Under the pieces are notes generated by a model. It searched no databases and was not told where the DNA came from. It worked only from the letters and a program-made list of their open reading frames with translations. The position numbers were made by a program, and so were the translations under genes. DNA of 64,000 nucleotides, from contig OZ224045.1 of the NCBI GenBank assembly GCA_963665325.3, positions 1,696,001 to 1,760,000 on the forward strand, in the 5' to 3' direction. Source of the stretch: Alphaproteobacteria bacterium (GTDB lineage Bacteria > Pseudomonadota > Alphaproteobacteria > Bin95). Of the stretch, positions 8,582 to 50,205 are shown one piece after another. How positions within the stretch are numbered: position 1 is the first letter of the stretch; every line of letters begins with the position of its first letter.

Positions 8582-10636
8582 ATGGCAGCATCGGGCGTCG
8601 ATCCAATTACCCTGGAAGTCGTGACCGAAGGGCTGATCGCGATCGTGAGGGAAATGCGGGCGACCATCATCCGGGCGTCCTATTCGTCCGTGATCCATGA
8701 GTTCGACGACTTCTCCTGTGCGCTCTTCGATGCGGACGGCCAAATGGTGGCGCAGTCGTGGGACCATCCGGGCCATGTCCTGCCTTTGCCATGGGGTGTG
8801 GGCTGTGCGCTCGAGGACTTTCGGGACGACCTGAAGCCCGGCGATGCGGTGCTGTTGAACGATCCCTATCGCGGCGGCACCCATCTCAACGATGTCACAC
8901 TGCTCTTTCCGGTGTTCGATGACAGCGGAGCCCTGATGGTCTTTCCGGCGGTCCGGGCCCACTGGGTCGATGTCGGCGGCATGGTGCCGGGCAGCTATTC
9001 GGGTCTTTCGACCAATATCTACCAGGAAGGCGTGCGGATTCCGCCGATCAAGATCGTCGAGGAAGGGCGGGTCAATCGCGCCGCGATGACGCTGCTGATG
9101 GCGAACATGCGGGTACCGGAGGAACGTGAAGGCGACCTCAATGCCTCTTTCGGAGCGTGCAGGATCGCCGAACAGCGCATCCGGCGGCTTTACGCCAAGT
9201 ATGGCGGCGACTGTGTGAAAGATTGCATCGGGACCCATCTCGACCGCACCGAACGACGCCTGCGTGAGCGGATTGCCGAACTGCCGGACGGTGACTACTG
9301 CTATGAGGACTATCTGGAATACTTCAATGAGGGCCGCCTCGACCCGGTGTTGATGCGTCTCAGGCTGACGGTATCGGGCGACCGGATGATCGCGGATTTC
9401 GCGGGCACCAACCCGCAGGTTCCGGGGGTGGTGAACTCGTCCCTCGCGGTTACCGGCGCCGGCGTTTTCGTGGCGATAAAGGCGACGCTCGACCCTGGCG
9501 GGGCGGTCAACCAGGGCGCCTTCAGGCCTATCGAGCTGCGCGCGCCGGAGGCGTCCATCGCCGATGTTCGCCACGACGCGCCGGCGGGCGCTCACGGCGA
9601 GGTTCGCAAACGCGCCGTCTCGGTCACGCTGGGCGCCCTGTCGCAGATCGTCCCGGACCGGGTCTCGGGGGATCTCTGCGGCACCTCGTTTCCCAATGCC
9701 ATCGGCGGGTTCAACAAGAGGCGAGACCGGCAATATGTCTATTACGAGGCCCCGGCCGGCGGGAACGGGGGATTCCTGCAGCATGACGGCCCGAGCGCCA
9801 TGGTTAACGTCGACTTCGGCAACCTGCCCTCGGTGCAGACCGCCGAGTCCATCGAAAACGAGATGCCGCTGCTGGTAGAGCGTTGCGAGCTGCGCACCGA
9901 TTCCGGAGGGCCGGGCGCCAGCCGCGGCGGGCTCGGCATGCGCCGCGAGGTGCGCCTGCTGGATGACGAGGGCAGTTACTCGGTGCTCAGCGACCGGGCC
10001 GTGATTCCTCCCTTCGGCGTCCTCGGTGGCGGCAGCGCGGCACCCTACATCGTCTCGGTGGTCCGCGACGGCGTGGAAACCGGTTTCTCTACACCGGGCA
10101 AGGTAACGGGCCATGCGATTCGCCGCGATGACACCGTGGTCATGCGTTCGGCCGGGGGCGGCGGTTACGGTGACCCACTGACCCGCAATCCGGTTTCGGT
10201 TCGCCGGGACGTCTCCGAGGGCCTCGTCAGCCGGACCTGTGCAGCCGATGTTTACGGGGTCGTGCTCGACGATGACGGGGAGGTCGACACCGCGGCAAGC
10301 GATGCCGCGCGAGAGGCGCTCGCGGCGGCCCGCTACCGGGCCCGGGTTGTGGCCGACGATGCCCACGATCCCTATGTCGGTATCAGGGGACGGCGCCGGA
10401 CGGTTCGGTTGTCGCCGGCGATGGCGGCCCGGATCGGGGTCGCCAACGACGATCTGACCGAGCTGATGGGCGCCAACCCGGCGCCGCTTCGCGCCTGGGT
10501 CGCGGTCGATGCCGACCATGTCGAGGACACCGTCATGCTCGATCCGTTCGGCCGCAAGGCGCTCGGCGTCGATCATGGCGACACGGTGGTCCTGAGGGCT
10601 GTGCCCACGCCCGAGGTCCCCGGAGGGCTTGCCTGA
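8582..10636 (+). CDS. hyuB: Hydantoinase B/oxoprolinase family protein with C-terminal extension
   Basis: DPITLEV, NDPYRGGTHLND, HWVDVGG, EGVRIPP, SAGGGGYGDP; 3 bp after hyuA. Confidence 0.92.
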   Translation: MAASGVDPITLEVVTEGLIAIVREMRATIIRASYSSVIHEFDDFSCALFDADGQMVAQSWDHPGHVLPLPWGVGCALEDFRDDLKPGDAVLLNDPYRGGTHLNDVTLLFPVFDDSGALMVFPAVRAHWVDVGGMVPGSYSGLSTNIYQEGVRIPPIKIVEEGRVNRAAMTLLMANMRVPEEREGDLNASFGACRIAEQRIRRLYAKYGGDCVKDCIGTHLDRTERRLRERIAELPDGDYCYEDYLEYFNEGRLDPVLMRLRLTVSGDRMIADFAGTNPQVPGVVNSSLAVTGAGVFVAIKATLDPGGAVNQGAFRPIELRAPEASIADVRHDAPAGAHGEVRKRAVSVTLGALSQIVPDRVSGDLCGTSFPNAIGGFNKRRDRQYVYYEAPAGGNGGFLQHDGPSAMVNVDFGNLPSVQTAESIENEMPLLVERCELRTDSGGPGASRGGLGMRREVRLLDDEGSYSVLSDRAVIPPFGVLGGGSAAPYIVSVVRDGVETGFSTPGKVTGHAIRRDDTVVMRSAGGGGYGDPLTRNPVSVRRDVSEGLVSRTCAADVYGVVLDDDGEVDTAASDAAREALAAARYRARVVADDAHDPYVGIRGRRRTVRLSPAMAARIGVANDDLTELMGANPAPLRAWVAVDADHVEDTVMLDPFGRKALGVDHGDTVVLRAVPTPEVPGGLA

Positions 10637-10659
10637 TACCGGCGGTCGTCGATCGGAAC

Positions 10660-10716
10660 CGATGGCGGCCGGGACGGCGCGGCCGGGCTGCGGGACCTCC
10701 GGCGAGATGTCATGAG
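10660..10716. repeat. Dispersed non-coding repeat element, copy 1 left part (split by IS110)
   Basis: GGCGCGGCCGGGCTGCGGGACCTCCGGCGAGATGTCATGAG aligns with GGCGTCGCCGGGCGACGATGACCCCTCGGAATTGTCATGAA at ~49657-49698. Confidence 0.7.
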
Positions 10717-10799
10717 CACCCACCCGCGCGGGGCGTGGGCCCTGTCGCGCAAGTAACGGGGCCTTGTGGCCTTGGCGGCGGTGTTGTGATTTGAGGTCG

Positions 10800-10975
10800 G
10801 TCTGGGGAATGGAGGCCGGAGAATCACTGGTGTGCATGTAGCGCCCGTTCATGAGCTTGGCCCGAACCACGATCGGCTTCTGTCACTGATGGCGCGGTTC
10901 GCCGCGACCTCGTTCGAGAGATTGGGCATTGTTGCGTGGTTCTTCCCCGTCCGCACCGGCACACAAAATGGGGAC
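10800..10975 (+). ncRNA. Candidate IS110 bridge RNA in the upstream non-coding end
   Basis: About 260-bp non-coding end 5' of the transposase; GCGCC/GGCGC stem enclosing TCATGAG (target match), GCGG-TTCG-CCGC hairpin, TCGAGAGA (donor-end match); boundaries approximate. Confidence 0.55.
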
Positions 10976-10979
10976 CAGC

Positions 10980-12356
10980 ATGGCGCGCAAGACCGGGAAG
11001 AGGCAGCGGTTGAGGGTTGTGAACCCGGATTGCGCCGGGATCGACATCGGTAAGGACCGTCACTTCGTGGCCGTCGATCCGGCGCGCACTTCGGACCCGG
11101 TCCGGGCGTTCGGCGGCTTCACCTGCGATCTGCGGGCGATGGCGGACTGGCTTTCGTCGTGCGGCGTGACGAAGGTGGCGATGGAGTCGACCTCGGTTTA
11201 CTGGATCCCGGTCTACGAGGTGCTGGAACGCGCCGGCTTCGAGGTGCTCCTGGTGCCCCCGCGGATGACGAAGCAGATTGCCGGTCGCAAGAGCGACGTG
11301 CTCGATTGCCAGTGGATCTGGCAGCTTCTGTCCTACGGGTTGCTGCGGGGCGCCTTCCGTCCTGGCGATGCGGTCTGCCCGCTTCGCTCCTATGTGCGCC
11401 AGATGAAGCGCCTGACTGAAGACCGCTCGCGCTGCGTGCAGCACATGCAGAAGGCGCTGACCGAGATGAATGTCCGGCTGGACTCGGCGATCGCCGACAT
11501 CACGGGGCAGACCGGCATGAAGATCCTGCGGGCGATCGTCGACGGCGAACGCGACCCGCAGCGCCTGGCATCGTTCCGGCACCGGCGGATCAAGGCCAGC
11601 GCGGACACAATCGCCGCGAGCCTGGAAGGCACCTGGCGCGAGGAGCATCTCTTCGCCCTGGAGCAGGCCGTGCAGCGCTATGACTTCCTCGACCGGCAGA
11701 TCGAGGACTGCGAGGCGCGGATCGCGGAGCAGATCGACGATCTGACGCCACCGGACGGGCCGGGCGGCGGTGACGCATCCCACGAAACACTCCGCGCGGT
11801 CGGCCCCATGACCGACAAGGCGTTGACCGTGGCCCTGACCGCCATGATGGGCACCGACCTGACCGCGATCCCGACCATCGGTCCCGGAACCGCTCTGACG
11901 ATCGCTTCCGAGATCGGCCCGGACTTCTCCGCCTTCCCTTCCGCCCAACACTTCTGCTCCTGGCTGGGGGTGGCGCCGGGCACCAGGATCAGCGGCGGCA
12001 AGCCTTTGCCGGGCCGGACGCACAAGGTGGTCAACCCGGTCGGACAGGCCCTGCGCATGGCAGCCATGTCGGCACGAAGGAGCCAGACCTTCATCGGCGC
12101 CAAACATCGCGCCCGGCTCGCCCGAAAGGACACTCCCGTCGCGATAACCGCGACCGCCCGCGAACTGGCTTGCCTGATCTATCTGATAGTGACGCGGGGT
12201 GAGCAATATGTCGAAAAAGGCATGCAAGCCTACGAAAAACGGCGCATCGACCGTTCCCTCGCCAACCTGCGGCGCAAGGCTCGAACCCTCGGCTACCAAC
12301 TGATCCACCCCGCCCAGGACATGCAAGCGCCCGATGGTGATAGGGCCATGGCGTGA
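10980..12356 (+). CDS. IS110 family transposase/recombinase (DEDD RuvC-like plus Tnp_20)
   Basis: GIDIGKDRH, AMESTSVYW, RKSDVLDCQW, SWLGVAPGTRISGGK. Confidence 0.95.
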   Translation: MARKTGKRQRLRVVNPDCAGIDIGKDRHFVAVDPARTSDPVRAFGGFTCDLRAMADWLSSCGVTKVAMESTSVYWIPVYEVLERAGFEVLLVPPRMTKQIAGRKSDVLDCQWIWQLLSYGLLRGAFRPGDAVCPLRSYVRQMKRLTEDRSRCVQHMQKALTEMNVRLDSAIADITGQTGMKILRAIVDGERDPQRLASFRHRRIKASADTIAASLEGTWREEHLFALEQAVQRYDFLDRQIEDCEARIAEQIDDLTPPDGPGGGDASHETLRAVGPMTDKALTVALTAMMGTDLTAIPTIGPGTALTIASEIGPDFSAFPSAQHFCSWLGVAPGTRISGGKPLPGRTHKVVNPVGQALRMAAMSARRSQTFIGAKHRARLARKDTPVAITATARELACLIYLIVTRGEQYVEKGMQAYEKRRIDRSLANLRRKARTLGYQLIHPAQDMQAPDGDRAMA

Positions 12357-12376
12357 GCGTTAGTTACTCGAGAGAG

Positions 12377-12825
12377 ATGTCATGTTCTGTCATGATCGGC
12401 ATGCGCAGGGCACATGTGCTGCGGTGTGTTTCGGCATAAGGCAGCCCTCCCCGCGCTCGTCGCCCGGGCCTCGCGGCTCTTGCGTCTGTCTGCATCCGGC
12501 CCATCGTGCCCTCATTCCGTTTCGTTCCCTTTCGTTCCAATCTTCCTTCCGCCGGCGCCGCTGCGGTGGAACCCCAATTCGCGCGTATCGCATGTGCGCG
12601 GGCGCGCATGTCGGCGCCGGCGCGGTTCGCGCGCCTGATTGCGCCTGCGCGCGAAGCAAACGCAAGGCGCACGTCTCCCGTGGGTTTCAAGAGGTTTTTT
12701 TCGCGCCGGCGCCGACGCAGAAGGCATGGCGGCCTCCGGATGCCGCCTCCTTCCCTATCATTCTAGCATGGAAATTTCTGGGTCAAGCAGTTTTGGGAAA
12801 TATTACCGGATTTTCTTGAACCATG
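12377..12825. repeat. Dispersed non-coding repeat element, copy 1 right part
   Basis: TGTCATG at 12378 and 12388; TTCGCGCGTATCGC at 12578; 31-bp core 12614-12644 identical to 50008-50038; GGTCAAGC and TTTCTTG blocks shared with copy 2. Confidence 0.85.
12760..12786 (-). promoter_or_regulatory. Putative sigma70 promoter inside repeat copy 1 (TTGACC-N12-TGc-TAGAAT)
   Basis: Reverse complement reads cTTGACCcagaaatttccaTGcTAGAAT; same geometry in copy 2. Confidence 0.55.
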
Positions 12826-49649: not shown

Positions 49650-50205
49650 CCGGAAAGGCGTCGCCGGGCGACGATGACCCCCTCGGAATTGTCATGAAAT
49701 GTCATGAGATGTCATGGTCGGGCGCGGGTTGCCCGTCGTCAGGCCGGCCCGCCTTGGGGCGTCCGCGGCATTGCCGGAAGCTGCCGAAGCGGTGGCAGAC
49801 GGCCTTCTGCCGGGCGGAGAGAGAGGGTTCGTGTGCGGCGGTCGCTTCAGGCATGGGCGGCGGCTCTTTCGTTCATTTTATGTTCTCTCGGCGATCCGAT
49901 GCGGTGCCGGACTGCGCCTGGCCAGGGGACGGGGTTGGCGGACAGCACGACCCCGCGGGAAGCGACCCTGTTTCGCGCGTATCGCGTGCGGGTGCGGGCG
50001 CGCGTTAGCGCCGGCGCGGTTCGCGCGCCTGATTGCGCGCGCGAGGCAGAGGGCGCACTTCGCCTGTGCGTTGAATCAGGGTCGTTTCGCGCCGGGTCGG
50101 CACGGGCGGGAAGCGGCCCGCGGATGCCCCTTCCCTCGGACCCATCATACCACACCTATTCTCAGGTCAAGCCCGATTCGAGAATTATTGCCTAATTTCT
50201 TGGAA
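49650..50205. repeat. Dispersed non-coding repeat element, copy 2 (uninterrupted)
   Basis: TGTCATG at 49690, 49700, 49710; TTCGCGCGTATCGC at ~49972; 31-bp core 50008-50038; hairpin 50108-50135; GGTCAAGC at 50165. Confidence 0.85.
50144..50170 (-). promoter_or_regulatory. Putative sigma70 promoter inside repeat copy 2 (TTGACC-N12-TGg-TATGAT)
   Basis: Reverse complement reads cTTGACCtgagaataggtgTGgTATGAT. Confidence 0.55.

Follow-up and report, generated by a model that had tools for sequence, protein, structure and literature searches.

The stretch of DNA analyzed here (the window, 64,000 nucleotides) harbors an IS110-family insertion sequence at 10717-12374 (+). Its transposase matches the Pfam profiles DEDD_Tnp_IS110 (PF01548, E 8.7e-22) and Transposase_20 (PF02371, E 5.3e-14) and scores 282 bits against the NCBIfam model NF033542, "IS110 family RNA-guided transposase", which has a cut-off of 140. 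The layout of the IS110 group is also present, with 263 nt of non-coding sequence 5' of the start codon and 18 nt 3' of the stop codon. The only structurally solved relative of this transposase is that of IS621. As bridge RNAs are predicted in 85.7% of IS110-group elements, with diverse structures, in the accessible portion of a survey of the group (PMC11208160), a bridge RNA is to be expected here.

The junctions were set by comparing the two copies of the element in the genome with paralogous empty sites, and both ends were aligned with those of relatives. The second copy (L002) is 99.7% identical and has the same terminal bases; both copies begin directly 3' of ...TGTCATGAG and terminate in ...TTACTCGAGAG, followed by ATGTCATG, and AG is present at both junctions of the element. 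The three paralogous empty sites are runs of the heptad TGTCATG with 10-bp spacing, which places the element between two heptads, in the context TCATG-AG/A-TGTCATG (the slash marks the insertion point). Genome-wide, the pattern TGTCATG-N3-TGTCATG has 119 matches, compared with 0 for the reversed control. The heptads form a dispersed intergenic repeat with two to four TGTCATG units at 10-bp spacing, and ~120 nt of conserved sequence lies 3' of them in many copies. Parts of this repeat are found in the window at 10706-10716, 12377-12396 and 49690-49716. At one further locus, L004 (G000:C1, ~97,150-97,200), the left junction and ~20 nt of the left end are fused to sequence whose usual place is ~100 nt rightward of the target repeat; it looks like the remnant of a copy that was lost or deleted.

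Table 1 Features assigned to the insertion sequence, its predicted bridge RNA and the target repeat, by position in the window.
Feature	Positions	Strand	Basis or remark
Left target half-site and core, TCATG+AG	10710-10716	+	Adjoins the left end of the element; from sequence
Insertion sequence	10717-12374	+	Left end 263 nt, transposase gene, right end 18 nt; the AG core is the last two bases
Subterminal inverted repeat, left-end arm AGTAAC	10752-10757	+	Partner GTTACT, 12363-12368
Probable bridge RNA, approximate extent	10763-10956	+	5' limit from RNA-library contig; 3' limit from end of closing helix
Closing helix, 5' strand	10799-10806	+	Pairs with 10945-10952; 89.9% paired, 21 sequences
Helix P0, 5' strand GAGG	10811-10815	+	Pairs with 10908-10912 (CCUC), around the target-binding part; 93.3% paired
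Hairpin P-a (UGGUGUGC-loop-GCGCCCG)	10827-10847	+	89.8% paired; U:A in 19, U:G in 2
Assigned left target guide TCATGAG (5 variable nt and AG core)	10849-10855	+	Equals left flank; covariation
Hairpin P-b, distal stem-loop (CCGA/TCGG)	10860-10877	+	97.1% paired; conserved, without compensatory change
Conserved 3' strand of target-binding part, UUCUGUCACUGAUGG	10878-10892	+	Kept in families with unrelated right flanks; a right target guide would be expected here, none detected
Hairpin P-c (CGCGG-UUCG-CCGCG)	10893-10906	+	100% paired; one pair GC 13, AU 4, GU 4
Assigned left donor guide TCGAGAG (5 nt and AG core)	10914-10920	+	Identical to right end of the element
Candidate right donor guide GUGGUUCUU	10936-10944	+	Complementary to AG core and left-end +4 to +7 (CCAC)
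Closing helix, 3' strand CCCCGUCC	10945-10952	+	Scored fold
Transposase gene, 458 aa	10980-12356	+	Pfam and NCBIfam profile matches
Subterminal inverted repeat, right-end arm GTTACT	12363-12368	+	Arms covary
Left donor half-site and core, TCGAG+AG	12368-12374	+	Right end of the element
Extra AG unit, right junction	12375-12376	+	Second genomic copy lacks it
Right flank, rest of the TGTCATG heptads of the target repeat	12377-12396	+	Sequence; empty-site comparison
Unoccupied target-repeat copy	49690-49716	+	TCATGAG, then A, at 49702-49709

Relatives of the element were taken from 75 of at least 507 loci (protein identity 61-98%), and the 5' non-coding ends of cluster representatives were aligned. 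With the two copies in the genome, these loci made up a guide test set of 77, of which 9 had no locatable left end and 68 were scored; addition of a metagenome element, L090, gave 69 loci with 61 distinct sites. L090 was the one new complete element from a metagenome scan with a conserved 16-mer, which returned 120 stretches, 7 of them with the downstream motif, the rest being chance matches. Among 401 sampled genomes of the class, 5, the window's own included, had matches at E up to 1e-60, too few for any family to be added. The comparison covers about 20 independent families, many of the loci coming from the same few genomes.

An earlier note on this DNA, made from its letters, had proposed a bridge RNA in the 5' non-coding end, in which TCATGAG at 10849-10855 is identical to the left target plus core. 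The same heptamer does stand at 10710-10716, and it covaries with the left flank in the relatives. In these, the block at 10849-55 consists of five hypervariable bases and an invariant AG, set between invariant flanks on either side and at a fixed distance (136-141 nt, 156 in one family). Compared with the 7 nt to the left of the element over the 61 distinct sites, the block matched exactly at 49, with one mismatch at 8, with two at 3 and with six at 1 (L031). Blocks equal to their left flanks include CCCATAG, TGTTAAG, ATGACAG, ATACAAG, TTACCAG, ATAAGAG, CTTGAAG and TTGTCAG. Over the 17 different target guides, 79 of the 85 variable positions match, compared with a permuted mean of 27.6, and 79 was reached by 0 of 100,000 permutations. 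An unbiased scan of all RNA columns against all flank positions revealed a single diagonal, that of the target guide versus the left flank, with identity in 18-19 of 19 rows at each of the five variable positions. Several natural guide mismatches, at L043, L066, L078 and in the donor guide of L060, are wobble-compatible (G or U versus T or G of the bottom strand). Having the same sense as the top strand, the target guide would base-pair with the target's bottom strand. The hypervariable linker at 10818-10824 tracked neither target nor donor in an alignment judged by eye.

Two related families, L055 and L020, have the guides ATGACAG and ATGGTAG and left flanks that read (TG)TCATGACAG. From these sequences, both families appear to target the same heptad repeat as the element in the window, in another register.

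The second block in the earlier note, TCGAGAGA at 10914-10921, is identical to the right end at 12368-12375 as had been stated, and TCGAGAG within it covaries with the right end in relatives. Donor guide and right end were concordant at 66 of 77 loci, over five variants (TCAAGAG, TCGAGAG, TCGGGAG, TTGAGAG and ATGAAAG). The non-concordant loci are L060 and L061, with a one-base difference, L045, which is a pattern-matching artefact, and 8 in which one side is missing. AG closes all 17 target guides and all five donor guides; the AG core, which had been remarked on as unlike the CT of IS621, thus recurs in every relative, in both guides and at both junctions. The covariation of both blocks with their matching DNA sites bears out the proposed order, target guide then donor guide as in IS621, and it is what had been suggested as a check across IS110 homologs: both left guides track their sites. 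From these comparisons, we take 10849-55 and 10914-20 to be the left target guide and the left donor guide of a bridge RNA.

The fold of the RNA was examined with 21 aligned representatives and a hand-built structure, which was then scored. In this structure 93.3% of cells are paired, compared with 42-49% after a shift of the partners by one to three columns, and the covariation score is 0.135 versus 0.094 for shuffles (0 of 500), with compensatory changes at three pairs. A long-range closing helix encloses both guide regions, and its compensatory pairs are distributed as GC 6, CG 5 and UA 4 in one case and CG 12, UA 5 and UG 3 in the other. In 5' to 3' order, the closing helix is followed by P0, the variable linker, P-a, the target guide, P-b, the conserved 3' strand, P-c and the return strand of P0; then come the donor guide and, ~15 nt on, the candidate right donor guide, before the closing helix returns with its 3' strand. 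Helix P0 is almost invariant and hence gives no covariation signal.

The hairpins of the earlier note fared differently from its outer stem. The inner CCGA/TCGG hairpin (10862-65 and 10873-76) and the GCGG-TTCG-CCGC hairpin (10894-10905) are both present and recur in relatives as P-b (97.1% paired) and P-c (100% paired). An outer stem of GCGCC (10841) and GGCGC (10891) can form 5 of 5 pairs here; in the relatives its center pair is unpaired in 18 of 21 and there is no excess over shuffles. We rejected it as a conserved fold, as its strands (10841-45/10891-95) belong to hairpins P-a and P-c. A hairpin picked by eye at the start of the left end (first 45 nt) was also rejected; RNAalifold gives it five pairs, none of them compensatory. 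As a single sequence, 10717-10985 folds no more stably than shuffles (z = +0.27), and an Rfam scan of 10500-12700 with E up to 1 gave no family match.

RNA data containing a small share of the element were found in eleven library rows from three studies, of which four runs were compared. In a size-fractionated metatranscriptome, a 198-nt contig covers 10763-10943 at a depth of 137.6, with adapter letters immediately 5' of 10763, while in the same run the coding region is covered by pieces at depths of 20-30. This contig is an assembled sequence from a relative, with 6 bases different and 1 gap over 181 nt, and the library may contain DNA; such contigs do not establish the ends or strand of a transcript, or that it came from RNA. 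A second run of the same study holds a contig of a related family over 10707-10924, and runs X2 and X3 hold low-depth pieces of the coding region, with the non-coding end uncovered, which speaks neither for nor against expression. The two contigs are a weak hint that the bridge-RNA region is expressed. In 10600-11050, neither a sigma-70-like promoter nor a terminator was seen. Separately, two runs of one size-fractionated metatranscriptome contain a 68-nt piece at 12176-12243, in the 3' part of the transposase gene, at a depth of ~400 and with adapters at both of its ends; the piece shows no special fold on either strand.

The right-hand guides gave a different picture. The earlier note had seen no exact reverse-complement right guides, and our analysis concurs, as we found no right target guide either and a weak candidate for the right donor guide. 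In column by position scans over ~20 families, there was no complementarity diagonal between the RNA and the right flank beyond the core. A match that had been noted between TTCTGTCA (10878-10885) and the right flank at 12385-12392 exists as a pair of strings; it is in the same sense, lies 9 nt past the junction and is missing from the right flanks of L002 and L007, which have the same guides. Because families whose right flanks are unrelated conserve the RNA segment UUCUGUCACUGAUGG, this match is coincidental. For the donor, the best antiparallel diagonal is GUGGUUCUU, in which the rows complementary out of 20 are 17 for core A, 20 for core G, 1 at +1, 9 at +2, 11 at +3, 15 at +4, 16 at +5, 12 at +6 and 14 at +7. 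Both sides of this pairing are conserved, so that covariation is no test of it; GUGGUUCUU (10936-44) is probably the right donor guide, and we list it as a candidate. Handshake-guide positions 3' of the candidate right guides showed no covariation, and an invariant C follows the donor candidate.

Right flanks differ widely among copies that share one RNA. In the TTGGAAG family these flanks read CCGGG, TAGCT, GGGCG and CGGGA; right flanks likewise differ within the ATAAGAG and AAAGTAG families. Three copies, L060, L031 and L036, sit within the guide DNA of another copy, immediately 3' of its guide 7-mer. In the TGTTAAG family, 14 of 26 copies adjoin the left end of another copy with AG alone in between, and a second transposase frame was present in the fetched flank of 11 of these 14. 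The differing right flanks under one RNA and the nested and tandem insertions suggest that the target may be recognized by its left half-site alone, mainly or only the left 5 nt and AG, with the right flank unread past the core. We hold this proposal tentatively, at somewhat under even chances.

A more doubtful account keeps the same bridge RNA and adds a short right target guide, for example CU at 10880-81 or 10886-87 with one to three neighboring bases. The natural right target guide of IS621 comprises 4 nt including the core, according to the accessible portion of PMC11208158, and a guide of that length would be hard to see with ~20 families. CU occurs at three places in the 3' strand and is core-complementary in 14-20 of 20 rows, and, checked by hand, 6 of 7 positions of the GGCUUCU of the copy in the window can pair with AGATGTC. 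All 26 copies of the TGTTAAG family have C as the first right-flank base, and a guide made up of the core, or of the core and one further base, may exist; position +1 of the right flank varies, however, within three other families with one RNA each. The right flanks in tandem and nested insertions are moreover quite unlike one another, and the scans gave no diagonal past the core.

The head-to-tail tandem loci are L023, L024, L019, L028-L030, L033, L035, L037, L039-L041, L048 and L050. Extra AG units are a further feature of the right junctions: 55 of 73 loci lack them, 13 carry one to four and 5 carry nine to sixteen. Loci with AG runs are L013, L014, L016, L064, L066-L068 and L070-L072, and in the window the run occupies 12373-12376. 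One right flank is common to three loci, yet the number of AG units is 10, 12 and 16. The donor end itself already reads AGAG, and both slippage in replication and slips of the recombination register are conceivable sources of the runs.

The two ends of the element also share a subterminal inverted repeat of 6-8 bp, the right arm of which adjoins the donor half-site while the left arm lies ~35-36 nt into the left end. The arms covary between families (GTTAC/GTAAC, TTTTAC/GTAAAA and GTTCC/GGAAC), with 113 matched positions compared with a permuted mean of 96.6, a value reached by 0 of 20,000 permutations. The left-end arm stops 6 nt short of the 5' edge of the RNA contig. The inverted repeat may act as a protein site or a promoter element, or it may be an IS1111-like repeat.

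The segment from 10763 to ~10956 is very probably the bridge-RNA gene of this IS110-family insertion sequence, and target choice may rest mainly or only on the left 5 nt and AG. The proposal of the earlier note that the 5' non-coding end holds a bridge RNA is supported by covariation over ~20 families and by the family membership of the transposase. It is very improbable that the region is instead only a translational leader with transposase binding sites, the 7-mers being DNA motifs read by the protein. Such a leader could draw on the covarying DNA inverted repeat at the two ends and on the ability of CCCC at 10945-48 to pair with the ribosome-binding GGGGA at 10970-74, but 17 different 5-nt words would then have had to co-evolve with the protein next to flanking RNA that stayed constant. 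The compensatory helix changes favor an RNA, several of the natural mismatches are wobble-compatible, and by its score the transposase is an equivalog of the RNA-guided family. A reading of the guide matches as chance, or as junction sequence left in the left end by an old nested insertion, can point to the shortness of the 7-mers, to their counts in the window (TCATGAG 8 vs 6.85 expected) and to the nested insertions that do occur in the clade, but it is for practical purposes refuted by a block at fixed distance between invariant flanks that in 17 families follows the target (0 of 100,000 permutations). Window counts alone show no enrichment of either 7-mer (TCGAGAG 10 vs 12.29 expected), and the chance of finding either in a 263-nt end was estimated from window rates at ~1-3%.

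The segment UCCCC at 10944-10948 has two possible partners, the GGGG of the closing helix (10803-06) and the ribosome-binding GGGGA (10970-10974), and pairing of CCCC (10945-48) with GGGGA (10970-74) appears in the single-sequence fold. With two alternative partners for this segment, the bridge RNA might fold at the expense of transposase translation, or the reverse.

On the bridge-RNA reading, the element shares much with IS621 of E. coli as described in the accessible portions of PMC11208160 and PMC11208158. In both, a transposase with DEDD and Tnp domains is accompanied by a guide RNA in a long left end, the target part precedes the donor part, and the left guides include the core and have the sense of the top strand. 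Both also use one core dinucleotide for target and donor, have a distal stem-loop 3' of the left target guide and target a repeat element. The two systems differ in other respects. The transposase has 458 aa here compared with 326-328 in IS621, and only the C-terminal domains align (E 1.4e-5). By the same accounts, the core is AG here and CT there, and the left guides have 7 nt here and 8-9 there; a right target guide was not detected here and no junction promoter is visible. The IS621 RNA carries its target-binding and donor-binding parts as two sequential loops, in that order (PMC11208158), whereas one closing helix here holds the target part and both donor guide positions. In the fold of the present RNA, the target part comprises three hairpins within P0, two of them extra relative to IS621. 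Particular to this clade are its AG core, left guides of 7 nt, the helix around both guide regions, the AG runs, the covarying inverted repeat and, apparently, the lack of a right target guide.

The IS1111 group is reportedly served by a seekRNA, described by Siddiquee et al. in 2024, that guides a DEDD transposase in elements with long subterminal inverted repeats. In that group the RNA lies in the right end, according to the accessible portion of PMC11208160, whereas here it lies in the left end. The present element has a subterminal inverted repeat as well, covarying and of 6-8 bp, with one arm ~35 nt inside the left end. ISPpu9 and ISPpu10 of Pseudomonas putida likewise use a dispersed, multi-copy intergenic repeat as target; as far as the available text of PMC12288879 and 10.64898/2026.03.19.712850 goes, that target is a palindromic REP, while here it is a run of TGTCATG heptads with 119 pattern matches. 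Two preprints (10.64898/2026.08.31.748434; 10.64898/2026.08.14.744561) describe, in their accessible parts, half-match recombination of IS110 elements, duplication of whole elements in tandem and matches to the left donor only at repeat boundaries. In the present clade, nested copies and tandem copies with AG alone in between are frequent. Half-matching is treated in those parts as an off-target or excision mode in elements of the IS621 type that have full guides, whereas here the left half may be all of the target that the natural RNA specifies. In the second preprint, as accessible, insertion regenerates no target, whereas in this clade the junction between left target and left end may remain one. 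Four conserved 10-mers of the RNA were absent from the searchable text of the PMC11208160 supplements, a partial text, and the clade may still be part of that survey. We found no paper joining IS110, bridge RNA and a dinucleotide repeat.

If the element works as IS621 does (Durrant 2024; Hiraizumi 2024), both guides, which are in top-strand sense, would anneal to bottom strands, those of the target and the circular donor junction, and an RNA-held tetramer of the transposase would exchange strands at the AG core. Were targeting indeed left-only, the junction between left target and left end would stay a target after insertion, which would give rise to head-to-tail arrays. The insertion of copies into the guide-coding DNA of one another would likewise be accounted for, as would the AG runs of up to 16 units at the right junction, possibly through slips of the recombination register.

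Bridge RNAs are programmable recombination tools, and mechanistic work on them has been done almost entirely on IS621 and its close relatives. A distant and larger transposase (458 aa), with assigned left guides, an AG core and another RNA topology, provides a natural test of which parts of the four-guide scheme are essential, and the element offers a natural setting for the half-match reactions that were lately reported as off-target behavior. For genome annotation, the bridge RNA explains both the non-coding end of the element and its insertion preference.
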